Both the position numbers and the translations under genes were made by a program. DNA of 64,000 bases from Escherichia phage QL01: sequence record NC_028847.1. One strand, 5' to 3'. Position 1 is the first letter of the stretch. Every line of letters starts with the position of its first letter. This document shows positions 9,116 through 63,725 of the stretch, piece after piece. The notes beneath the pieces were generated by a model, which was not told the DNA's origin, searched no databases, and saw nothing but the letters and a program-made list of their open reading frames with translations.

Positions 9116-9766
9116 TTATTTTATAAATTCACGTAGTCTTACTGGTGTCATAAAAGGCCATTTGGCTATAGTTGGTTTTATCCAGTATCTTTCGTGGCAT
9201 GTAGCTTTAAATGCCCGAACCATATCCTTGGCCTCTTCTATAGTATCCACACCAAATTGTTCACAAGTTTCCTTTCTGGCTTTATCCCATCTCCGTTTAG
9301 AAAGCTCCGCTTGGAGTTCTTTATTGGCAAAACGGCCATTATTCCTATCATGAGTGGTTCCTTTTGTAGGACTCCATCCTCGTCCCTTTACAAATCCTTC
9401 AGGAATCGGTTCACCCGGAAACAGCTTAATACACTTCTTGCCATTATTATAATAAACCTTTCCTGTTTGGGTTGCTGTGATATTCTCAGAGTGCTTACGT
9501 TTAAGCCAGCCGTAAAGCTTATTAGAACGACGAGGGCCTTGAGTCATTGTCATAGCTGCAAAAGTTAGACCAGGATGTCCTGGATGCATTTTAACTAATA
9601 GTTGATGTGCTAAATAATGTTCTTCAGGAGTTAAATCAACTAAGTTTGTAGATTCATCACCTCCACCCATACATCTAGGTAAAATATGATGAGATTCGGT
9701 ATAACAGGATAGTGCTCGTCCTTGAGCACGTGTAATTAATGAAGAATATATTTTCTGGTAATTCAT
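9116..9766 (-). CDS. HNH homing endonuclease (Mob-like)
   Basis: motif ESHHILPRCMGGGDESTNLVDLTPEEHYLAH; ATG at 9766 overlaps gp2 stop; inserted between genes 2 and 3. Confidence 0.75.
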   Translation of the reverse strand: MNYQKIYSSLITRAQGRALSCYTESHHILPRCMGGGDESTNLVDLTPEEHYLAHQLLVKMHPGHPGLTFAAMTMTQGPRRSNKLYGWLKRKHSENITATQTGKVYYNNGKKCIKLFPGEPIPEGFVKGRGWSPTKGTTHDRNNGRFANKELQAELSKRRWDKARKETCEQFGVDTIEEAKDMVRAFKATCHERYWIKPTIAKWPFMTPVRLREFIK

Positions 9767-10602
9767 TATGCCTTCTTCCAAACTTTCTGAGCTGAATAAC
9801 GCTTACCTTTCGATACAAATTGCTGAAGTGGTAATCCTATTACATTAGCCCAATCAGATGGTTTTATCTCTACTAAAGGTCCCTTAATATTTCCAGGGAT
9901 ATAAGCCTTAATCATCACGTCGGCGCCAGCGAATCCTTTTACCTTACTCCAATCGATTTTTAATTTAGTCGAGTTCGTAATGGTAGGCGTACTCGCGTAT
10001 TGCTTCAGCAATTCTTCCAGAAATTGCTGACGTGCTTTAGGTGGAATATAGTGTAAGTTCAGTCCGTACATTAAATTATGCTTACCTAACCCAAGATAAA
10101 TTATTAAAGGATATTTGTCCCAGTATGGTAGGGTATCCTTATGTTTGGCATCATAGATATAAGCATAAAGCTTACCAGGAGACGGTTTAGATACCTGGTG
10201 TCCACGAATTCCTTTCTTTAATGTTTCTGTAAACCATTTAGCTGATTTATTGTTTACGGCAGCGCCTTCGTTAGCAATCTTATCGCGAATACTCTTTCTA
10301 AAACTATTCACCAAAATTAATTGACGTTCGGCTTTGGTTAATTTATTGCCAGGTTTCTTCTGAAGTTTTTCAACCTGTACAGCAGTTTTAATTCGACTCG
10401 AGTATCGAGACATCGCAGATGTAAAGCTAGAATACTTGATGCCTTTATCTTCAGCGAATTTCTTAGCCGAAACACCTTTAGCCTTAGCGTTGGCATATTC
10501 AACGCCTAAAGTTATCCATTGTTGTTCTGAACGAGTAGGCTTGGAACCTTTTGTAGTTTCAGTAGCCTCGTTGATGTAAGAAAATATACTCATCCTTTCC
10601 AT
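9766..10602 (-). CDS. 2: gp2 DNA end-protector protein
   Basis: 278 aa, synteny and size (T4 gp2 about 274 aa). Confidence 0.7.
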
Positions 10603-11039
10603 CCTAATTTTTTCAGTGAGTTTTCGGTAATCAATCTGAAATTAATTCCCATTTTATCTGCTGTAGCTTTAGCAGCTTTCCATTTATCTTTATTTACACT
10701 CCATGTATAATGTTCGTTGATATATCTCTTTTTAGCAGCTGTAGTCATTTTAGCAGGCGCCGCTGGAGGATGGGTCTCTTTAAAAGGTTTGACTTCGAAA
10801 AAGAATTGTTGACCATTGTCGAACTTCACCCAGAAGTCCATAAAATACCGACGTTTCTTTCCATCAGCGTTACTAAAATATGGAATCACAACCTCTTCCG
10901 AGTTCCACTGGACGACATTAGGATGGTTGTCAAGCCAACGCATAAGCCATGCTTCCCAAGAGGAACGATATTGGATTTTCTTCCAATCACCTTTATATTT
11001 TTGTAAGTTTGTAGGTTTAAATTTCCCTGAGTAGGCCAT
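10590..11039 (-). CDS. 4: gp4 head completion protein
   Basis: 149 aa, synteny and size (T4 gp4 about 150 aa); late promoter upstream. Confidence 0.7.
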
Positions 11040-11049
11040 AGTGCCTCCT

Positions 11050-11057
11050 TATAAATA
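11050..11057 (+). promoter_or_regulatory. late promoter TATAAATA for gp53
   Basis: exact TATAAATA about 28 nt upstream of gp53 ATG. Confidence 0.6.
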
Positions 11058-11064
11058 TTAATAT

Positions 11065-11072
11065 TATTTATA
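11065..11072 (-). promoter_or_regulatory. late promoter TATAAATA for gp4 (divergent)
   Basis: exact TATAAATA on minus strand about 26 nt upstream of gp4 ATG. Confidence 0.6.
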
Positions 11073-11084
11073 CTCGGAGGCACT

Positions 11085-11687
11085 ATGCTCTTCTCATTTT
11101 TCGATCCTATAAATTACGAATCAAAAACAGTCAAGCCAGATTCCGGCTCATTAACTGATGCCGATGTACTGAGCGTACCGATGACTGATATATTTAGAAA
11201 CTATAAAGAATATTTTGATAAAGTGGCTAAAAATTATACACTTAAAACATATTATATCAGTGGGGCCCCTCGTCCAGAAGAATTAGCCCATCAACTTTAT
11301 GGTAACGTGCAATTATATTGGGTTTTATTGATGTGTAATAACGTATATGACCCTTATTACGGCTGGATTACAGGCCAAGAATCTGCGTATCAAGCAGCTA
11401 TTCAACGTTATGCTACTGCAGGCGGAAACCAAGTCCTTTATCATGTCAATGAAAAGGGTGAGAAATTCTGGAATCTAGTAAATACTCCGGAAAATCCTTA
11501 TACTTGGTACGATAAAGGTGATACAGAAAAACGTTATCCTCAATATGAAGGTCCTTTGGCTGCAGTAGATATTTACGAGGACGCCATTCGTAAAAATGAA
11601 TATAAGCGCGAAATAAAGATTATAGACCCTAATGACATCGAGTCCTTTGTTTCCGCTTTAATTAGAGAAATGGAGAAAGCCCTCTAA
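11085..11687 (+). CDS. 53: gp53 baseplate wedge protein
   Basis: 200 aa, MLFSFFDPINYESK..., close to recalled T4 gp53; start of conserved late gene run. Confidence 0.9.
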   Translation: MLFSFFDPINYESKTVKPDSGSLTDADVLSVPMTDIFRNYKEYFDKVAKNYTLKTYYISGAPRPEELAHQLYGNVQLYWVLLMCNNVYDPYYGWITGQESAYQAAIQRYATAGGNQVLYHVNEKGEKFWNLVNTPENPYTWYDKGDTEKRYPQYEGPLAAVDIYEDAIRKNEYKREIKIIDPNDIESFVSALIREMEKAL

Positions 11688-13429
11688 TGATTAACATGTC
11701 TGATAATGTAAGTTGGTTCGTCGGTGTAGTTGAAGACCGAATGGACCCACTCCAACAAGGCCGAGTACGCGTGCGCGTATGGGGTATGCATCCATATGAA
11801 AAAGTACAAGGCCCTGTAAAAGGCCTTCGTACAGAAGATTTACCATGGATGTCGGTATTAATGCCTACATCTTCTGCCTCTGTTTCAGGTATCCAAACCG
11901 CTATGACTGGTATGGTCCCCGGTACACAAGTTTATGGTCACTTTCTTGATAAGTGGAAATTAAACGGACTTGTCCTTGGTACATACGGTTCCGCTTCAAG
12001 ACAGAAGGCTAATCCTAATGAAGGGTTTAGTGACCCTACAGGCCAATATCCGCTTTATTTAGGTAACGATGCTGCTGCTTTAAACCGAGGTGGTGAAGTT
12101 GGATACGATGCCACTTCTAACGTAATACAAGATGCAAACACTGATGTAGGTATTAATCCTGACGGGTTGGATTTAAGTCAAGTCAAACCAGACGATAATC
12201 CTAATTTCACAATAGAAAACATGCTTCATCGTGATGAAGGGCTTAGACTGAAGGTATATTGGGATACCGAAGGTTATCCTACTATAGGTATAGGCCACCT
12301 TATCACACCACAACCTATTAGAGATATGAATCGAATAAACAAAATATTATCTAATCAGGTAGGACGAGAAGTTAAAGGTAACCCTGGTGCAATATCAATG
12401 GATGAGGCTTCTAAATTATTCCAAGAAGACCTTAAAAAAGTCCAAAACGATATAGGTCGGCATAGTGTTGTAGGTCCTGTTTACAATAAAGAAAACCGTT
12501 CAAGACAAATGGCTCTTGAAAACATGGCTTTCCAAATGGGATTAGGTGGATTGGCTAAATTCCGTGGAATGCTTAGTGCAATGCTAATAGGCGATTATAA
12601 AAAGGCATTTGAGGAAGCTCGTAATTCAGTATGGTTTAACCAAACTAAAGGTCGCGCATCAAGGGTGTCAATGATTATCCTCACAGGTAACATGGAATCA
12701 TATGGTATTATGGCCCCTAAAGAAAGGTCATTTAATGGCCGTTCGTATAGAATGATTCAAACCTTTGTGGCCCCTACAAATTCAGACCCTGCCGACCCGT
12801 GGACTCCAGAAGACACAAGGATTCTTTTTAAAGAACCTGATTCTAGTTATAAAGGCGAATATCCATATGTCCAAACCATGCAAACTGAAGGCGGGCATAT
12901 CCAAGAATTCGATAATACCCCAGGGCAAGAACGATACCGTTTAATCCATCCTACCGGTAGTTATGAAGAAGTTGCTCCTGATGGACGTAAAACTTCTAAG
13001 ACGGTAGCCGATGGTTATTATATGACCCAAGGCGATTCAAATACTTATGTTGGTGGTAATAATAAAGTCAACGTTGGTGGCGATGAAACCTATTATAATA
13101 TGGCAAACGTGCGTCGTCAGACTGATGGAAACGAAACCATCCATATTCGCGGTAATGAAGAGAAAACTGTAGAAGGTAATGGCACCCTTCGTGTTAAAGG
13201 TAATGTTACTGTTATTGTTGAAGGAAATGCTGATGTTACTGTTAAGGGTGATGCAACTACCTTAGTTGAAGGTAATGAAACTCGTACGACCAATGGTAAT
13301 TTAAATTGGACAGTAAACGGTACCGTTTCTTGGACTTGTGCAGGTGCGTGGTCCGAGACTATGGCTTCAATGAGTTCTATTGCATCTGGTCAATATACTA
13401 TTGATGGTTCGAGGATTGACATTGGCTAA
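11687..13429 (+). CDS. 5: gp5 baseplate hub / tail lysozyme
   Basis: 580 aa with lysozyme motif EGYPTIGIGHLIT and C-terminal beta-helix VxGxxxV repeats. Confidence 0.9.
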   Translation: MINMSDNVSWFVGVVEDRMDPLQQGRVRVRVWGMHPYEKVQGPVKGLRTEDLPWMSVLMPTSSASVSGIQTAMTGMVPGTQVYGHFLDKWKLNGLVLGTYGSASRQKANPNEGFSDPTGQYPLYLGNDAAALNRGGEVGYDATSNVIQDANTDVGINPDGLDLSQVKPDDNPNFTIENMLHRDEGLRLKVYWDTEGYPTIGIGHLITPQPIRDMNRINKILSNQVGREVKGNPGAISMDEASKLFQEDLKKVQNDIGRHSVVGPVYNKENRSRQMALENMAFQMGLGGLAKFRGMLSAMLIGDYKKAFEEARNSVWFNQTKGRASRVSMIILTGNMESYGIMAPKERSFNGRSYRMIQTFVAPTNSDPADPWTPEDTRILFKEPDSSYKGEYPYVQTMQTEGGHIQEFDNTPGQERYRLIHPTGSYEEVAPDGRKTSKTVADGYYMTQGDSNTYVGGNNKVNVGGDETYYNMANVRRQTDGNETIHIRGNEEKTVEGNGTLRVKGNVTVIVEGNADVTVKGDATTLVEGNETRTTNGNLNWTVNGTVSWTCAGAWSETMASMSSIASGQYTIDGSRIDIG

Positions 13430-13439
13430 TATTTTACCT

Positions 13440-13961
13440 ATGAGCACAGATTTAGGAGACTCCATGGAAGGAGCCTCAATCGATGTTACGTTTACTGCTC
13501 AATTAGAAACAAACGAAACATTAGTTGAAATAAATATAACAGAATATGAGCCTACAGAAGGCATTATTGTCGATGGAGCTCATTTATATGGAACCTACGA
13601 ATCGGTATTTGGATTCTCTGAAGATGCCTTGAAATATCGATTAAACGATGAATTTAAAACAGCCGGTTCATGGAAAGACTTACCAGGCGATAGTAACACT
13701 CAATTATACCTCTGGAAAGCCCCTAGTAATCTCCAGAAGACGTTTTCTTACACAGTCACATTAATCTATGACTTTCAAGAAGAGTCATCAGGAGGTGATA
13801 CAGGGAACTCAGGCGGTAGTAATTCTAGGGCCGGTAGCGAAATAGACCCTCCTCCGGCTCCTGTAAGAAAAACCCTTACTAAGGTTTATACCAAGGTTAT
13901 TGTCGGTAATTGGTCCAAATGGGCAAATCAATTAAGAGAATACGTATATGCGAGGCCATAA
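13440..13961 (+). CDS. 5.1: gp5.1-like protein
   Basis: ORF 13380..13961 trimmed to ATG after gp5 stop; position between gp5 and gp5.4. Confidence 0.55.
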   Translation: MSTDLGDSMEGASIDVTFTAQLETNETLVEINITEYEPTEGIIVDGAHLYGTYESVFGFSEDALKYRLNDEFKTAGSWKDLPGDSNTQLYLWKAPSNLQKTFSYTVTLIYDFQEESSGGDTGNSGGSNSRAGSEIDPPPAPVRKTLTKVYTKVIVGNWSKWANQLREYVYARP

Positions 13962-38858: not shown

Positions 38859-39674
38859 ATGCTTAAAGAACAACTGATCGCCGAAGCACAGAATATTGAT
38901 GCTTCCGTTGCTCTTGACAGTATTTTCGAATCAGTTAATATTTCTCCGGAAGCAAAAGAAACTTTCGGCACTGTATTCGAAGCTACCGTCAAGCAACACG
39001 CCGTGAAACTGGCTGAATCTCACATCGCTAAAATCGCTGAAAAAGCGGAAGAAGAAGTCGAGAAAAATAAAGAAGAAGCTGAAGAAAAAGCCGATAAGAA
39101 AATCCAAGAAGCTGCCGGTCGTTTCCTTGACCACGTTGCTAAAGAATGGATGGCTGAAAACCAGCTGGCTGTTGATAAAGGTATTAAAGCCGAACTGTTC
39201 GAATCCATGTTGATGGGTATGAAAGAACTGTTTGTTGAACACAATGTGGTTGTTCCAGAAGAAGCAGTAGATGTTGTTGCTGAAATGGAAGAAGAACTCC
39301 AAGAGCAGAAAGATGAAACCGCTCGTCTGTTCGAAGAAGTTGGTAAGCGCGACGCGTATATTAATTACGTACAGCGTGAAGTTGCTGTTACGGAAGCAAC
39401 TAAAGACCTGACTGAATCCCAAAAAGAAAAAGTTAGTTCTCTGGTAGAAGGCATGGATTATTCCGATGCATTCGGTAGAAAAATTGGCGCTATTGTTGAA
39501 ATGGTTAAAGGTCAGTCTGACGTTGAAAACCCAATCACCGAAGCCGCTATAAATAAAAATGTAGACGATGCTGCGGCACTGAATTACATTTCAGAAGCAG
39601 TTGAAGAAAAAGGCGCTAAGCCTACCCTGTCCTTCGCGGACCTGTCTGCAATCGCAGCATCACGAATTTCTTAA
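38859..39674 (+). CDS. 22: gp22 prohead core scaffold protein
   Basis: 271 aa, Glu/Lys/Ala-rich helical protein. Confidence 0.85.
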   Translation: MLKEQLIAEAQNIDASVALDSIFESVNISPEAKETFGTVFEATVKQHAVKLAESHIAKIAEKAEEEVEKNKEEAEEKADKKIQEAAGRFLDHVAKEWMAENQLAVDKGIKAELFESMLMGMKELFVEHNVVVPEEAVDVVAEMEEELQEQKDETARLFEEVGKRDAYINYVQREVAVTEATKDLTESQKEKVSSLVEGMDYSDAFGRKIGAIVEMVKGQSDVENPITEAAINKNVDDAAALNYISEAVEEKGAKPTLSFADLSAIAASRIS

Positions 39675-41571: not shown

Positions 41572-41600
41572 TTTTAATCTCCTCATGTTTTGATAGGTCT

Positions 41601-41630
41601 ATAGTAACATGTGAGAATCTTGCTGTAAAC
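41601..41630 (-). promoter_or_regulatory. T4-type early promoter cassette, copy 4
   Basis: GTTTAC ... TACTAT agacctatcaaaac on minus strand. Confidence 0.5.
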
Positions 41631-41636
41631 AACTTT

Positions 41637-41644
41637 TATAAATA
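41637..41644 (+). promoter_or_regulatory. late promoter TATAAATA for gp24
   Basis: exact TATAAATA about 29 nt upstream of gp24 ATG. Confidence 0.55.
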
Positions 41645-41672
41645 AACATATACCCTCAATAAGGAAAGCGCA

Positions 41673-47246: not shown

Positions 47247-47254
47247 TATAAATA
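47247..47254 (+). promoter_or_regulatory. late promoter TATAAATA for uvsW
   Basis: exact TATAAATA about 28 nt upstream of uvsW ATG. Confidence 0.5.
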
Positions 47255-47260
47255 TAACTA

Positions 47261-47268
47261 TATTTATA
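47261..47268 (-). promoter_or_regulatory. late promoter TATAAATA for inh (divergent)
   Basis: exact TATAAATA on minus strand about 34 nt upstream of inh ATG. Confidence 0.5.
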
Positions 47269-50880: not shown

Positions 50881-50888
50881 TATTTATA
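50881..50888 (-). promoter_or_regulatory. late promoter TATAAATA for gp26
   Basis: exact TATAAATA on minus strand overlapping the plus-strand one by 4 nt. Confidence 0.5.
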
Positions 50889-50892
50889 AATA
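50885..50892 (+). promoter_or_regulatory. late promoter TATAAATA for gp51
   Basis: exact TATAAATA about 21 nt upstream of ATG at 50913. Confidence 0.5.
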
Positions 50893-57435: not shown

Positions 57436-57465
57436 ATAGTACCACATCCTTGTGGTGTTGTAAAC
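57436..57465 (-). promoter_or_regulatory. T4-type early promoter cassette, copy 5
   Basis: GTTTAC ... TACTAT taccttacacaaac on minus strand, overlapping the stop of the upstream alt-like gene. Confidence 0.5.
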
Positions 57466-59588
57466 TACATTTTGAATTTATTTGATAAAGAAGAGATATC
57501 CAAAGACGCGGCAAGGATTTCCATAGCTTCGTTGCTTTCAGAAACGGATTCATTAACCAAGAATTGACTAAATCCATCCATCAGGCGAACTTCACCAGTT
57601 TCCATCAAATGGTCACCATCGTAAACAGATTCGCTGAGCTCTGAAGGAGGCGTTACGGTAGCTTCCATAAGGTATTTGTGAGATACTCTATCATTCATGG
57701 CAAAAGCCGCTACTTTATCAACCTTCAACAATAATCCACGCGGAAGGATAATTTCTGCTTCTTCGGCATATTCTGTAAGGTCACCAGGAGCGATAACTTT
57801 AACTGCTTCAGCACCTCGAATAACCATACCAATTTCAGCAATTCTATCTGCAGGACCTTCAGGTGCAATTGGATTACCAAACTCGTCTTCTTCCCATTCT
57901 ACCTCTTCGTCATCGACTTCACCCACATCAGATGAACTACCACTAGCCAATTTAAACAACTCATCAGCGGAGGACAAAGAACCTTCACCACCAACAAAAA
58001 CGGCTTGGTTGTCGAGGGCCATATAATTTTTACCGAATTCACCAAAGATGTTAGGCTTTAATGAGGCTGACACAAAGTTCTTAAAGTAAAATGTTTTGTT
58101 ATCGATATTATGGCGCAGAATTTTGTATGGCAAATCCTGACCACGATACAAAATAGTACCCTTAGGAAGTTTAATACCCTTAGTAAATGCTGAGTCTAAA
58201 TCCTTAATCAATTTAATAGCCGTTGTATTGTTTTCGGATTCAGGTTTACCTAAAAGGAATAAGTTCATAGGAGCATATTCAGCCGCGCAATATTCAATAA
58301 TAGCATTGCTTTCGTCTTTGGTTAGGTCCTTAGGTTTAATGAGCTCGCCTGAATAAGCATATGCATCACTAATAGAATCGTTAACCAGTTTATAAACGGC
58401 TTCCATAGCGAAAGCAATTCTAGATGCTTTCTCTGAAGGGGAACCCTTAAAACGGGTACTCAGGTTATTAACAATTTTCTTAATAATATCCAGACTATTG
58501 GTTGTATTGATTTGCGAAAGGCCACTTAAAAGTCTATCGACTTCTGTATTAAAAAATGCCATATTATTAGAGTAAATTTCAAACCCTTGTTTATCTCTAT
58601 TAGCATAATTTAGTTTAAATTTACTATCAGTCATTAAAGCGTGTGTGAGAGCAATAGTGTATCTAAAGTTGGCAAGGTCCTCGCTCTTAGATTTAAACTG
58701 AGAAGCCTGACGCATTTTAGTAATGGCACCTTTTTTAAAGTTCTGACTAATCTGTTCAATACCTTCGTTCTCAGGGCCTTCAGCCGTGTGAACCGGTACA
58801 GAAGCTTCAAACTCGTTATAAACCTGCAATTCTTTAGGGGACAAAGTTTCAGGCTCAGCAGTAGAATACTGCGCGGCCGCAGCCATACGACGCGAAATCT
58901 TAGTACGAGAGATAACGGCCTTATCAGTACGTTTCTCTTCAACTTGTGCAATAGATGCCGCTACGGCTTCTACTTTACTTACGGCCTGGCCTGTTTTCTT
59001 AGAAACATACACTTCGCCAACTTTAGACTCAACTTTAGTATAAAGATCGGCATTAATTTCAGGCATACCCTTGATATCTTCAATATTAGCACCGCGACGT
59101 ACTAAAAGAACGTAGGTATGTTTTCCGCTGAATTGGAACATGTCGTCAACAACTTTAAACTTACCACCGGTACGAGCCATAGCCAAACGAGCTAATACGC
59201 GCTGAACGGTAGGACCTTTACCTTTCATTTTCTTAGTAGGGAAACGGAATAAAACCGCGTCCATTTTAAGTTTGATTATTTGTTCATATATGGTATCGAA
59301 AATGGTGTTCAGTGTACCGAGTGGATCGGTACCCAAACCACCCTTGAGTTCTGCCGGAGCGCCTTTAGCAGATAAACTCATTAAGATAACATGGACGTAC
59401 TTATCGCCATTTTTAACCATCTTAATAGCGTCGCCTTCGGACGCATAAGATACCATACGTGCTACTAAATTGTCATTACCAGGAGCATGTACCGCAAAAA
59501 TCTGCGGTACGCCTGAGCCAGGTTTAAGATTTGTTACCGGATAGTTTTTAGCGGAATCGCTATCAAAAACTTCGTTTAAATTTTCCAT
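57465..59588 (-). CDS. Alt-like ADP-ribosyltransferase, copy 1
   Basis: 707 aa; N-terminal about 235 aa near-identical to copy 2; C-terminal R (YRG), STS-like (SASL) and E (EAEIILPRG) ART motifs. Confidence 0.8.
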   Translation of the reverse strand: MENLNEVFDSDSAKNYPVTNLKPGSGVPQIFAVHAPGNDNLVARMVSYASEGDAIKMVKNGDKYVHVILMSLSAKGAPAELKGGLGTDPLGTLNTIFDTIYEQIIKLKMDAVLFRFPTKKMKGKGPTVQRVLARLAMARTGGKFKVVDDMFQFSGKHTYVLLVRRGANIEDIKGMPEINADLYTKVESKVGEVYVSKKTGQAVSKVEAVAASIAQVEEKRTDKAVISRTKISRRMAAAAQYSTAEPETLSPKELQVYNEFEASVPVHTAEGPENEGIEQISQNFKKGAITKMRQASQFKSKSEDLANFRYTIALTHALMTDSKFKLNYANRDKQGFEIYSNNMAFFNTEVDRLLSGLSQINTTNSLDIIKKIVNNLSTRFKGSPSEKASRIAFAMEAVYKLVNDSISDAYAYSGELIKPKDLTKDESNAIIEYCAAEYAPMNLFLLGKPESENNTTAIKLIKDLDSAFTKGIKLPKGTILYRGQDLPYKILRHNIDNKTFYFKNFVSASLKPNIFGEFGKNYMALDNQAVFVGGEGSLSSADELFKLASGSSSDVGEVDDEEVEWEEDEFGNPIAPEGPADRIAEIGMVIRGAEAVKVIAPGDLTEYAEEAEIILPRGLLLKVDKVAAFAMNDRVSHKYLMEATVTPPSELSESVYDGDHLMETGEVRLMDGFSQFLVNESVSESNEAMEILAASLDISSLSNKFKM

Positions 59589-59591
59589 TAT

Positions 59592-61637
59592 TTACCCTTG
59601 GATGAATTTTTCTGGCGTTTCGTCAAAATTAATACATGAAGCTAAAATAGGCATTATATCCACCTTGGTCGATTTGACGAATGAATCAAAAGACACAGGG
59701 TTGTCGGTCTCTGTTTCTACGCCTTGGTAAACAACCAATTCGCCGGTTTCCATCAATGCATCACCATCATAGATAACCGCATTTTCTGCTAGTTGGTCTG
59801 TGGTCTGGATATCAGCTTCCAATAATTTGGTGTTGTAGTTTCCTTTATATGAGGCATCTGTAATTTTAGTAATCTTAACAGTAGTTCCACGTGGAAGAAT
59901 AACCTCTTGTTCTGTTGGAGAACCTGACAATTTACCTGGCACAATTACGTTAATAGAGTCTGCACCGGAAATTTTCCAACCGATGTTCATCATTGTATTT
60001 TCGGAACTCGTCAGCATACTTGGAAGAACAATTTCATTATCGCCTTGGAAAGATGTCCCAGCGCGATAGTCCTGATGAACTGCGGCCATTGCGACGTTTG
60101 ATACCCAGCCGCCAAAGATAATCGGCTTAAGGGACGTTGATACATAGTTCCTGAAATAAAACAATTTTGAGTGTTTGATTTTATCAAAAGTGTTAACATT
60201 TAAATATTGACCACGCCAAAGTGTAATATCAGGTGGCAATTTATGGCCAATTTCAAATGCTGCATCCATATCATTAATTACTTCAATTACACGATAACTA
60301 TCAATAAATTCTGCATCCTCTTCATAATAATTACCCAACAAATAATTATTAACATCGGTATAATATTGGCCACAATAAGAAGAAATAGCCTCACGCTGCT
60401 CATACTCAAATCGATTATCGCTATAACTGGCTGTAAAATGCATAACACTTTCTGACGCTTCATTAGCAAAGTCGGTAACAGCAGCACTTATACGTTGAGC
60501 ATACTCTTGTTCCCAAAGCTCTGCTGCATATTCTGCCGCATCCATATTAGGAGGAGCCTCATTCATTTTTCTTTCAATAAATGCAGCTTTGCGAAGGTTA
60601 AGAACCTCTGCACATGATTCGGCAAAAATCTGCATCTGCTTCATACTGCCGACAGGAGCACGTTTAAGTTCACGATGCATACGGTTAAAAATTGGGTCAG
60701 AGTCTTCGACTCGAATTTCTTCTTTCCAAACACCGTTTGCTCGCATAGCCATATCTGCCGCGCGCATACGCTCCATAGTATTCGTTTCAGAAGGTTGAAT
60801 AAAAATTTCTAGTTCTTCATAATCATCGATAAGTTCCGCTGTTGCTGGGGCACTAAATTTTGATGCCTCTGCATCAATCTCATTCCAACCTTCCGGAACT
60901 TCATCTCGAGGAGAATACTGGGCTGCGGCTACAGCACGCCTAGAAATCTTAGTAGTAGTAATAACGGCCTTATCCGTACGTTTTTCTTCGACTGCCGCTA
61001 TACTAGCAGATAGTGCTTCTATTTTGGTTACCGATTGGCCTGTTTTCTTGGATACATAAACCTCACCAACTTTAGACTCAACCTTAGTGTAAAGGTCTGC
61101 ATCAATTTCAGGCATACCTTTTATGTCCTCAATATTAGCTTGTTTACGGACCAGTAAAACGTATGTATGTTTGCCTGTAAATTGATACATATCATCGACA
61201 ACTTTAAACTTGCCGCCAGTACGAGCCATCGCCAAACGTGCCAATACACGTTGAACAGTAGGACCCTTACCTTTCATTTTCTTGGTAGGGAACCGGAAAA
61301 GAACTGCATCCATTTTAAGTTTGTTTACTTGTTCGTATACAGTATCAAAAATGGTATTCAGCGTACCAAGTGGGTCAGAACCTAACCCACCTTTCAACTC
61401 GGCTGGGCTACCCTTAGCAGACAAACTCATCAAAATAACATGAACATATTTGTCGCCCGGCTTAACCATTTTAATAGCGTCTCCTTGAGACGCATAAGAT
61501 ACCATACGAGCAACCAGATTATCATTACCTGGTGCTTGGATAGAGAAAATCTGTGGAATACCGGAACCCGGTTTAAGATTTGTTACTGGATAGTTTTTAG
61601 CGGAATCACTATCAAAAACCTCATTTAAATTTTCCAT
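59592..61637 (-). CDS. Alt-like ADP-ribosyltransferase, copy 2
   Basis: 681 aa; conserved N-terminus MENLNEVFDSDSAKNYPVTNLKPGSG; WRG, STSL, QEVILPRG motifs. Confidence 0.8.
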   Translation of the reverse strand: MENLNEVFDSDSAKNYPVTNLKPGSGIPQIFSIQAPGNDNLVARMVSYASQGDAIKMVKPGDKYVHVILMSLSAKGSPAELKGGLGSDPLGTLNTIFDTVYEQVNKLKMDAVLFRFPTKKMKGKGPTVQRVLARLAMARTGGKFKVVDDMYQFTGKHTYVLLVRKQANIEDIKGMPEIDADLYTKVESKVGEVYVSKKTGQSVTKIEALSASIAAVEEKRTDKAVITTTKISRRAVAAAQYSPRDEVPEGWNEIDAEASKFSAPATAELIDDYEELEIFIQPSETNTMERMRAADMAMRANGVWKEEIRVEDSDPIFNRMHRELKRAPVGSMKQMQIFAESCAEVLNLRKAAFIERKMNEAPPNMDAAEYAAELWEQEYAQRISAAVTDFANEASESVMHFTASYSDNRFEYEQREAISSYCGQYYTDVNNYLLGNYYEEDAEFIDSYRVIEVINDMDAAFEIGHKLPPDITLWRGQYLNVNTFDKIKHSKLFYFRNYVSTSLKPIIFGGWVSNVAMAAVHQDYRAGTSFQGDNEIVLPSMLTSSENTMMNIGWKISGADSINVIVPGKLSGSPTEQEVILPRGTTVKITKITDASYKGNYNTKLLEADIQTTDQLAENAVIYDGDALMETGELVVYQGVETETDNPVSFDSFVKSTKVDIMPILASCINFDETPEKFIQG

Positions 61638-61640
61638 TAT

Positions 61641-63725
61641 TTACCCTTGGATGAATTTTTCTGGGATGTCATAGAGGTCTATGCATGAAGCCAAAAGAGG
61701 CAGTACATCAAACCGTGTAGATTTAACAAATGAATCAAAAGATAAGGGGCTTTCGGAAGTATCGAAGTCATCTTGATATACGACCAACTCGCCGGTTTCC
61801 ATTAGTACATCACCATCATATACCACAGATTCTTGAAGCTCATCTGTTGTCATAACTTCAGCTTGAATGAGTTTTGTATTACTAGATGTTGTTCCATCAT
61901 TATTAGAAGCATCTGTTATTTTATTAACTTTGACCATTAATCCACGCGGTAGAATAACTTCGGCTTCAGTTGCTATTCCGAGATTTCCTGGATATACGAC
62001 ATTAACTTTATGGGCCCCATCAATAGCCCATCCTATTTGAACTTTAACATAATCAGGATTTTCTTTATATGCTCTTATTTCATTAGGATTAATAGTTATT
62101 CCTTCTTCATTTTTATCGACTGTCAATTCATTGCGAACTTCAGGTTCTAAAAGACCGATACCAGCGTGCGTAACACCAAAACGTCCGAAAATTATAGGGG
62201 TCAATGAAGTGGATACAAAATTTCTAAAATAAAACACTTTATTTTTAACTAGTGCTTCGTATATAGGAGCAGTCATACTCTGGGCACGATAAACTGTGAT
62301 GCCCTCTGGTATACGGTCGCCATTTTCAAAAGCAGAATCCAAATTATTAACTGCAGATTCGATATCTTTTTCGCTCATAACCTCATAGTTCTGAGGATTA
62401 TAACGTCCTAAAAGAAGATTATTTATGTCTGTATATCCTGAACCACAATATTCTCTGATACCACGCTTTTGTGATGGAGTATATTTAGAACCCTCACGAG
62501 CAATAGTAATATCGACCATAATACCGCCACCTACACCAGCAAAACTATACACGCGTTTTTTAATGAACTTGGTCTTGGCCGCTTTCCACTTGGCCTCTGT
62601 CAATTCGTTCCAAAGGTCATCAGGTTGGCCTTTACGGGTTCTGTTATGAATAGCCAGCCACTCGCCTTTGTATTCTTCGAAAATGGTATTAATAGTAGAG
62701 GCATATTTTTCTAGGGCTTTAACAGATGTCAAAGGTTCGTTTTTGATGGCCGTAAGGATTTTCTCTTTAATTTTCTCTTGGATTTCGCCAATACCGTGAA
62801 GTGGGAACAATTTGTAATCGTAATGCAATTCTTCAGCAGTGCCTTCAGCCACTATATTAGCAACCTTATTTTTAGCCGCAGGAGAATTGTTATTAGTAAC
62901 CATTTCCTGAGCCTCAGGGATTAATGGAACTGTTGCCGGTTTATTAAAATCTACTGCAGTAGCTTCATATTTCTTAAACAGCTCACTTTCATTACGATAA
63001 GATTCTAACGATTGACTTGCTGCAATGGCACGTCGAGAAATCTTAGTCTTGGTTATAACCATTTTATCAGTGCGACGTTCTTCAACCTTAGCAATACTAC
63101 CGGCAATAGCAGTTTCTTTAGTAACCTGCATGCCTTCTTTTTTGGAAATATAAACTTCGCCGACATCAGAATCTACCTTAGTATACAATTCAGCATTAAT
63201 TCCAGGCATACCTTTGATATCTTCTATATCAGCTTGTTTACGAACTACCAGGATGTAAGTATGTTTACCGGTAAATTGGTACATAGCCGGAACTACTTTA
63301 AAACGTCCACCTGTTTTCTGTGCTACCAAACGTTGGATAATCCGTTGAACGATAGGGCCTTGACCTTTCATTTTCTTAGTAGGGAAACGGAACATCACGG
63401 CATCCATACGAAGCTTTTTAACTTGGTCATAAACCACATCAAAAATAGTATTAATCGCATCTACGGGAGTAGGGCCTAGGCCACCTTTAAGTTCGGCAGG
63501 CGAACCTTTAGCTGAAAGGCTCATAAGGATAACGTGGGCATATTTATCACCCATCTTAACCTGTTTAATAGCATCACCTTCAGAAGCGTAGGATACCATA
63601 CGCGCCACTAATTGGGATTCTGCGTCACCAATCTTCCAAATCTGGGGTACTTTAAGTTTTGGGTTCAAGTTTACTGTAGGCAGTGTGCCTTCGGACTCAA
63701 ACACTTCATTTAATTGTTCGGTCAT
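61641..63725 (-). CDS. Alt-like ADP-ribosyltransferase, copy 3
   Basis: 694 aa; N-terminus MTEQLNEVFESEG more diverged; YRA, STSL, EAEVILPRG motifs; C-terminal tail PEKFIQG shared with copy 2. Confidence 0.8.
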   Translation of the reverse strand: MTEQLNEVFESEGTLPTVNLNPKLKVPQIWKIGDAESQLVARMVSYASEGDAIKQVKMGDKYAHVILMSLSAKGSPAELKGGLGPTPVDAINTIFDVVYDQVKKLRMDAVMFRFPTKKMKGQGPIVQRIIQRLVAQKTGGRFKVVPAMYQFTGKHTYILVVRKQADIEDIKGMPGINAELYTKVDSDVGEVYISKKEGMQVTKETAIAGSIAKVEERRTDKMVITKTKISRRAIAASQSLESYRNESELFKKYEATAVDFNKPATVPLIPEAQEMVTNNNSPAAKNKVANIVAEGTAEELHYDYKLFPLHGIGEIQEKIKEKILTAIKNEPLTSVKALEKYASTINTIFEEYKGEWLAIHNRTRKGQPDDLWNELTEAKWKAAKTKFIKKRVYSFAGVGGGIMVDITIAREGSKYTPSQKRGIREYCGSGYTDINNLLLGRYNPQNYEVMSEKDIESAVNNLDSAFENGDRIPEGITVYRAQSMTAPIYEALVKNKVFYFRNFVSTSLTPIIFGRFGVTHAGIGLLEPEVRNELTVDKNEEGITINPNEIRAYKENPDYVKVQIGWAIDGAHKVNVVYPGNLGIATEAEVILPRGLMVKVNKITDASNNDGTTSSNTKLIQAEVMTTDELQESVVYDGDVLMETGELVVYQDDFDTSESPLSFDSFVKSTRFDVLPLLASCIDLYDIPEKFIQG

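Follow-up and report, generated by a model that had tools for sequence, protein, structure and literature searches.

Two face-to-face T4-type late promoters probably share the 45-bp gap between genes 4 and 53 of a WG01-like Dhakavirus

Introduction

How late transcription can set out in two opposite directions from an intergenic gap of only 45 bp, and whether the inverted repeat that frames this gap takes any part in it, are the questions raised by the junction of genes 4 and 53 in the DNA analysed here. The whole stretch analysed, hereafter the window, comprises 64,000 nt of Escherichia phage QL01 (NC_028847.1). As judged from its sequence, the window is a WG01-like Dhakavirus: DNA at 10400-11700 is 100% identical to that of Escherichia phage WG01 (Dhakavirus, JS98 group), and the window and WG01 differ elsewhere, e.g. 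by a ~640-bp insertion at 9119-9759. The genes for gp55, gp45 and gp44/62 lie outside the window and are annotated in WG01, which is the closest complete relative. The two genes that meet at the junction are as follows.

10590..11039, minus strand: gene 4 (head completion / head closure), 149 aa; ORF, annotated as gp4 in WG01
11085..11687, plus strand: gene 53 (baseplate wedge subunit), 200 aa; ORF, annotated in WG01

The gp4 ORF starts at 11039 on the minus strand and the gp53 ORF at 11085 on the plus strand, with the 45 bp between them. Gene 4 heads the leftward late unit 4-2-(HNH ORF)-3, and gene 53 heads the rightward baseplate cluster. Homologues of gp4 were found in 2548 phage records, and roughly 2000 Straboviridae genomes contain this gene.

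The RNA polymerase carrying gp55 recognises T4 late promoters by an 8-bp box alone, which is located approximately one helical turn 5' of the start and is followed by an A/T-rich segment, the part that melts; 50 late promoters have been tabulated for T4 (PMC2988020). The box occupies positions −13 to −6 relative to the start, and A at −13 is an accepted variant of it (PMC1524935), which is seen at 9 of the 50 T4 sites (PMC2988020). A preference for A at +1 has been reported for T4 promoters generally, and 150 T4 start sites are described in a dRNA-seq preprint (10.1101/2024.04.04.588121).

Results

Late promoter boxes in the gene 4/53 gap

The initial annotation of this locus, made from the letters of the DNA, had placed TATAAATA at 11050-11057 on the plus strand and at 11065-11072 on the minus strand. 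Direct reading and a pattern search agreed on both positions, and the gap can be described by three features.

11050..11057, plus strand: TATAAATA box of the putative rightward late promoter P53; predicted start ~11063 (A), leader ~22 nt
11065..11072, minus strand: TATAAATA box of the putative leftward late promoter P4; predicted start ~11059 (A on the minus strand), leader ~20 nt
11049..11072, no strand: pure A/T block of 24 bp, containing both boxes, the 7-bp spacer TTAATAT and both predicted starts (11063 on the plus strand, 11059 on the minus strand)

These starts are predictions from the −13/−6 rule for the box. Both predicted +1 positions are A in the transcribed sense, which is consistent with the +1A preference in T4. 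The boxes are located 25 and 27 nt 5' of the ATG codons of gp4 and gp53, respectively, each in the orientation of its gene, and the A/T block is the segment which each open complex would have to melt.

The properties expected of late promoters were found at both sites: an exact box on either strand, an A/T-rich segment downstream of it and a position 5' of the orthologue of a T4 late gene, together with genes for gp55, the clamp and the clamp loader (via WG01) and conservation of the box at orthologous sites. No alternative exact box for either transcription unit was found in the window; there is no plus-strand box before 11050, and the next minus-strand box to the right of the junction is that at 47268. 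A σ70-type promoter in the gap was considered and rejected, as a consensus scan gave none there and the regional count corresponded to chance (10 vs 8.8). In the T4 GenBank records no promoter features are annotated at the gene 4/53 junction, and the records of phiR1-RT and phage 107 contain only annotated ribosome-binding sites. The proposal of the initial annotation that each of the two genes has a T4-type late promoter of its own was supported by the exact and correctly oriented motifs, the leaders of 20-22 nt and the conservation across genera; judged from these properties, the gap very probably contains two divergent T4-type late promoters, one per gene.

Occurrence of boxes and box pairs in the window

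The exact TATAAATA occurs 19 times in the window, compared with 8.0 ± 3.0 occurrences in dinucleotide shuffles, which is a 2.4-fold excess. An ORF of at least 40 aa starts 4-52 nt downstream on the same strand in 18 of the 19 cases, and the remaining box, at 39548, precedes the major capsid gene by ~125 nt (as inferred from the WG01 offsets). Boxes on opposite strands separated by no more than 40 bp were found three times, against 0.087 expected according to 300 first-order Markov simulations. Besides the gp4/gp53 pair, these are the pairs already listed in the initial annotation at 47247-47254 (+)/47261-47268 (−) and at 50881-50888 (−)/50885-50892 (+), both of which are exact.

47247..47268, both strands: crossing pair between inh (−) and uvsW (+), TATAAATA-N6-TATTTATA; predicted starts 47260 (+) and 47255 (−)
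50881..50892, both strands: back-to-back pair between gp26 (−) and gp51 (+), TATTTATAAATA, boxes overlapping by 4 bp; predicted starts 50875 (−) and 50898 (+), ~23 bp apart

The neighbouring ORFs were assigned to inh/uvsW and gp26/gp51 by their length and by the WG01 and T4 annotations. The T4 inh/segE junction, which is the orthologue of the inh/uvsW junction, carries TATAAATA-N6-TATTTATT, and T4 26/51 has overlapping divergent TATAAATA boxes within the same TATTTATAAATA that is present in the window at 50881-50892. A crude gene map of the window gave four real divergent junctions. Paired boxes are present at all three junctions that have late genes on both sides (gp4/gp53, inh/uvsW and gp26/gp51), and the fourth, at 41572-41672 between a small ORF and gp24 (late/non-late), has a plus-strand box only.

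Geometry of the promoter pairs

The gp4/gp53 pair had initially been described as back-to-back, and the other two as similar divergent pairs. The back-to-back description holds for gp26/gp51, the only pair in which the predicted starts lie outside the segment between the promoters, as they do at the T4 26/51 junction with its 4-bp box overlap. It does not hold for gp4/gp53 and inh/uvsW, where the plus-strand box lies to the left of the minus-strand box, the boxes being 6-7 bp apart. The promoter pair at gp4/gp53 is face-to-face (crossing): in terms of geometry alone, each promoter is located 3' of the start of the other, each would transcribe through the box of its partner, and the 5' ends predicted by the −13/−6 rule overlap by ~5 nt within the 24-bp A/T block.

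Conservation of the crossing pair in T4-like phages

A comparison of this junction over T4-like genomes, suggested as a check when the locus was first annotated, found the crossing pair to be conserved. The loci of gp4 relatives were taken from IMG/VR and GenBank, and the phages were identified by megablast. Among the loci compared, every one in which gp4 and gp53 are divergent neighbours has a pair of the form [T/A]ATAAATA-N6-11-TATTTATA between these genes. The gap between the boxes differs among the phages.

N6: Moon
N7: T4, RB51, phage 107, RB69, JS98 group, CF1 and CGG4-1
N8: an RB49-like phage, with the minus-strand box GATAAATA (unusual −13 base)
N10: VR20 and an IME523-like phage
N11: Acj61

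Since the gap never exceeds 11 bp, the starts are predicted to cross in every lineage and the 5' ends to overlap by 1-6 nt. In an alignment of 10 lineages, little or no variation is seen in the CCAT of gp4, a portion of the SD, ATAAATA, the gp53 start and TATTTAT, the last of which is invariant, whereas the spacer and the flanks vary. The plus-strand box reads AATAAATA in VR20, CF1, Moon and CGG4-1. The pair is disrupted where a homing-endonuclease gene or another ORF is inserted beside gp4, as in phiR1-RT and Aeromonas phages. The exact pair is absent from RB16/RB43-like and KVP40-like phages, and the RB16-like and KVP40-like phages have variant motifs only.

The architecture of the orthologous site in T4 (NC_000866, 77338-77384) is the same, with TATAAATA at 77349-56 (+), a 7-bp spacer, TATTTATA at 77364-71 (−), two strong SDs and leaders of ~21-23 nt; the spacer reads GATAATA in T4 and TTAATAT in the window. 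By the −13/−6 rule, transcription from the T4 pair would begin at 77362 (+) and 77358 (−), and from the T4 inh/segE pair at ~112042 (+) and ~112037 (−). Both T4 sites are likely to be among the 50 listed T4 late promoters. The junction of RB69 resembles that of the window in having TATAAATA-N7-TATTTATA, and Pl:80613(+) and Pl:80684(−) of this phage are predicted late promoters (Nolan et al. 2006, PMC1524935, Additional file 5). These RB69 sites are HMM predictions given in a supplement, which makes no remark on the crossing geometry, and RB69 gene 53 differs from that of the window by a longer leader and a TTG start. Similar overlapping pairs on opposite strands appear in the lists for RB49, RB43 and Aeh1 (Nolan et al. 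2006, PMC1524935). A literature search for divergent, bidirectional or overlapping late promoters and for late promoters of gene 53 yielded nothing usable. The putative late promoter pair at gene 4/53 is an already known, conserved property of T4-like phages; as far as the boxes tell, it is an ordinary arrangement, which T4, RB69 and no fewer than six further related genera share at this junction.

The inverted repeat and the RBS-start units

The gap is framed by two arms that are exact reverse complements over 12 bp.

11037..11048, minus strand: left arm, catagtgcctcc; its minus-strand reading GGAGGCACTATG consists of the SD, a 4-nt spacer and the gene 4 ATG
11076..11087, plus strand: right arm, ggaggcactatg, which is GGAGGCACTATG: the SD, spacer and gene 53 ATG

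The perfect repeat reported in the initial annotation, with both start codons inside it, is thus real, and so is the identity of the RBS-start units of gp4 and gp53 (12-nt GGAGGCACTATG). What found no support is its treatment as an element framing the promoters: the repeat is perfect in WG01-type phages only. No other perfect inverted repeat in the window reaches 12 bp (loop 3-60), and as ~0.39 such repeats per window are expected by chance, the repeat alone is unremarkable genome-wide. Among 69 crude gene calls, only 2 of the 2346 pairs share an identical 12-nt RBS-start unit, and GGAGG is present in three of the 69 units, two of them being those of gp4 and gp53. The repeat extends to 21 nt at 86%; this extension into both coding regions, which is not shared by T4 or the other phages, was rejected as a feature and treated as chance.

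Aligned on the start codons, the perfect repeat spans 12 nt in the window and only 2-6 nt in all other lineages. T4, RB69, CF1, CGG4-1 and Acj61 have only the SD and ATG in common with it, and the RBS-start units of T4 (GGAGAATCCAATG and GGAGGGCCCATG) are not mirrored, in contrast to those of the window. All lineages share a strong SD (GGAGG or similar) and the start codon, so that the repeat is essentially two mirrored RBS-start units. Within Dhakavirus, the left arm exists in two haplotypes, catagtgcctcc (WG01 type) and catagt[t/c]gcctcc (JS98 type, with a spacer longer by 1 nt), and position 11082 in the right arm is polymorphic (A/C/T), with T in L004. In KIT01, a left arm of the WG01 type is found together with C at 11082, which leaves an 11/12 match and no compensating change. 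The exact 51-mer has no copy in IMG/VR, and the perfect version is therefore confined to WG01-type GenBank records. One 1-nt deletion in the left spacer suffices to yield the perfect repeat.

If placed on one RNA, the 69-nt palindrome at 11028-11096 would fold with −32.8 kcal/mol (z = −8.0), the SDs and boxes of both genes accounting for the greater part of the stem. A repeat that functions as such would be expected to keep its complementarity by compensatory changes and to have both arms on one transcript. Here, the polymorphism within the genus is uncompensated, and each predicted late transcript carries one arm. Structures in the leader RNAs that mask the SDs were also considered and rejected, since the leaders alone are unstructured (z = −0.97 and −0.08, not significant). 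From these comparisons, the 12-bp repeat appears to be essentially a recent by-product of two mirrored RBS-start units, the 4-nt spacers of which match in one sub-lineage.

Discussion

It is quite probable that the 45-bp gap is one compact bidirectional late control region with two face-to-face T4-type late promoters, and we infer that both of them are active. RNA polymerase with the late sigma gp55, gp33 and the gp45 sliding clamp would recognise TATAAATA at −13 to −6, so that the plus-strand box (11050-57) would give rise to the gp53/baseplate mRNA from ~11063 and the minus-strand box (11065-72) to the gp4-gp2-gp3 mRNA from ~11059. Each box would sit within the first transcribed nucleotides of its partner, i.e. 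in the easily melted A/T-rich segment of the latter. As they would occupy nearly identical DNA and open one and the same A/T block, the two complexes should be mutually exclusive, with only one direction initiating at a time. In the activated complex, gp45 is located at the upstream end, where the footprint is extended by 13 bp, gp33 is near −39 to −35, and the polarity of the clamp is documented for late-promoter activation (PMC2988020). By this polarity rule, a clamp loaded in one orientation would activate only one of the two promoters. Mutual exclusion and the choice by clamp polarity are extrapolated from in vitro work with single promoters. The short leaders (~20-22 nt) would end in a strong GGAGG SD and ATG, and the 12-bp repeat, apparently perfected only in the WG01 sub-lineage, would be the mirror image of the two RBS-start units, with no apparent role of its own.

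An alternative explanation would be that only one of the boxes works, the other being an accidental near-palindromic echo and its gene being served by a distant promoter or by read-through. Such echoes arise easily in A/T-rich DNA, since TATAAATA and its complement differ at two positions only, and the Markov simulations now and then produced opposing pairs, at most two per window. Nevertheless, we consider this explanation very improbable: both boxes were kept in ~10 lineages despite changes of the spacer in both sequence and length, no further exact box lies upstream of either operon, and both RB69 sites were independently scored as late promoters by the HMM. In addition, two more late/late junctions have a doubled box, yet the late/non-late junction at 41.6 kb has a single one. 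Even less probable, and hardly credible in our opinion, is that the inverted repeat or the 69-nt palindrome was selected as a structural element, be it a hairpin in read-through (anti-late) RNA at which transcription ends or the RNA is processed, a cruciform in the DNA, or a binding site through which a dimeric protein controls the two genes jointly. The uniqueness of the repeat in the 64-kb window, the rarity of identical RBS units and the stable fold, which requires that one transcript span the whole palindrome, speak for it, as does the low-affinity binding of DsbA at A/T-rich sites that overlap two T4 late promoters (PMC2988020). Yet the repeat is not conserved, as is evident from the extra left-arm base of the JS98 type, the uncompensated C of KIT01, the T at 11082 of L004, the mere SD and ATG shared by T4, RB69, CF1, CGG4-1 and Acj61, and the missing 51-mer in IMG/VR. 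Moreover, the geometry leaves one arm per late transcript, and the predicted stem is made up mostly of elements that are needed otherwise (two GGAGG, two ATG and two TATA boxes).

How the repeat became perfect is a question of origin and not of function, and the template-switch answer to it is compatible with two promoters in the gap. Template-switch correction of quasi-palindromes, by which one arm is copied from the other, is an established mutational mechanism that was first described in T4. In the present case, catagt[t/c]gcctcc would be converted to catagtgcctcc by one 1-nt deletion, and the product exactly complements the GGAGGCACTATG arm that already exists in vB_EcoM_005. A single deletion, however, would also arise easily by ordinary slippage, and a linked coding difference in the left arm (gagtaGgcc vs gagtaAgcc) indicates that the haplotype may have come by recombination. 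We regard a template switch, as opposed to independent point changes, as an unlikely source of the perfect repeat. The perfection of the repeat is the sole element that is particular to the window, and we argue on the basis of the compared sequences that it is incidental.

The proposed pair of face-to-face late promoters can be compared with known divergent promoters. In bacteria, face-to-face or overlapping divergent promoters have coinciding polymerase-binding regions and produce transcripts which overlap at their 5' ends. The phage promoters differ from this class in having a single −10-like element, no −35 element and the phage sigma gp55, and in that their activator is a DNA-tracking sliding clamp and not a site-specific regulator bound between the promoters. 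Divergent transcription from overlapping late promoters at T4 26/51 was reportedly demonstrated experimentally by Scarlato, Storlazzi, Gargano and Cascino in 1989.

In practical terms, the annotation of this phage and also of its relatives can mark the gp4/gp53, inh/uvsW and gp26/gp51 gaps as paired late promoters, and a regulatory-element label for the 12-bp repeat is unwarranted. The gene 4/53 junction also illustrates genome compaction: 45 bp would accommodate two promoters together with the leader and RBS of either gene because each promoter provides its partner with the A/T-rich segment downstream of the box. The locus would be more interesting if its crossing geometry coupled both operons via clamp polarity. 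The 24-bp A/T block may act as one bidirectional element that responds to the orientation in which the gp45 clamp arrives, with selection for the crossing layout; we regard this as a tentative idea that is unlikely to be correct. If it were true, selection would have two reasons to maintain the layout, namely the melting segment supplied by the partner and the strict alternation of initiation between the head-completion unit 4-2-3 and the baseplate unit 53-5-.... The conserved 6-11 bp gap with its always-crossing starts would then be the signature of this constraint, and the relative amounts of the two mRNAs would follow the proportion of clamps loaded in each orientation, i.e. the direction in which the DNA is replicated and nicked locally.

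Transcription units on either side of the gp4/gp53 junction

The exact sequence TATAAATA was not found on the plus strand between positions 11058 and 26890, that is, over the 15.8 kb downstream of the predicted gp53 promoter; only AATAAATA occurs on this strand of the interval, at 13529 and 20370. In RB69, the next predicted plus-strand late promoter likewise lies approximately 9 kb downstream (PMC1524935). The predicted gp53 promoter may be the main consensus late promoter of the whole baseplate cluster.

Two features concern the leftward late unit, which is headed by gp4:

9116-9781, minus strand: 221-aa ORF with the HNH-type motif HHILPRCMGGGDESTNLVDLTPEEHYLAHQ, between gene 3 and gene 2
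11132-11150, minus strand: terminator-like hairpin, with a T-run after it, lying antisense within the gp53 coding region (TGAGCCGGAATCTGGCTTG ACTGTTTTTG)

The closest complete relative, WG01, lacks approximately 640 bp present in the window at 9119-9759, an insertion which corresponds to the HNH-motif ORF, and a Seg-like endonuclease is annotated at the same site in the related record IME540. The ORF is probably a homing endonuclease residing within the late unit that would be transcribed leftward from the predicted gp4 promoter. Minus-strand read-through would meet the hairpin and its T-run just ahead of the gp4/gp53 junction. The hairpin could block the entry of "anti-late" transcripts into the gp4 unit; its stem bases show synonymous-site variation in relatives.

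Late boxes and RBS-start units elsewhere in the window

Two further regions of the window were considered:

41572-41672: fourth divergent junction, between an unnamed 88-aa ORF (minus strand) and gp24, with a late box at 41637-41644 on the plus strand only
57465-63725, minus strand: three tandem ORFs, each of approximately 680-710 aa

The restriction of the late box to the plus strand at the fourth junction is consistent with the 88-aa minus-strand ORF not being a late gene. The first two of the three tandem ORFs share the identical 12-nt RBS-start unit GGGTAAATAATG and, besides gp4 and gp53, form the sole pair in the window matching at 12 of 12 positions. The three ORFs look like tandem paralogues.

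The junction in other phages

The KVP40-like Vibrio phage V05 has CTAAATA-type motifs on both strands (minus, ACTAAATA; plus, TCTAAATA) at a distance of approximately 40-65 nt upstream of gp4. They resemble the late motif CTAAATA described for Aeh1 (PMC1524935), and their order is back-to-back, in contrast to the crossing arrangement in QL01. The junction is broken in some lineages, among them phiR1-RT, in which a homing-endonuclease gene lies immediately upstream of gp4 (locus L034, 16-711), and Aeromonas phages in which other ORFs occupy the junction position and gp4 and gp5 are on the same strand (loci L018, L019, L024 and L036). The gp4/gp53 junction seems to have received insertions repeatedly.
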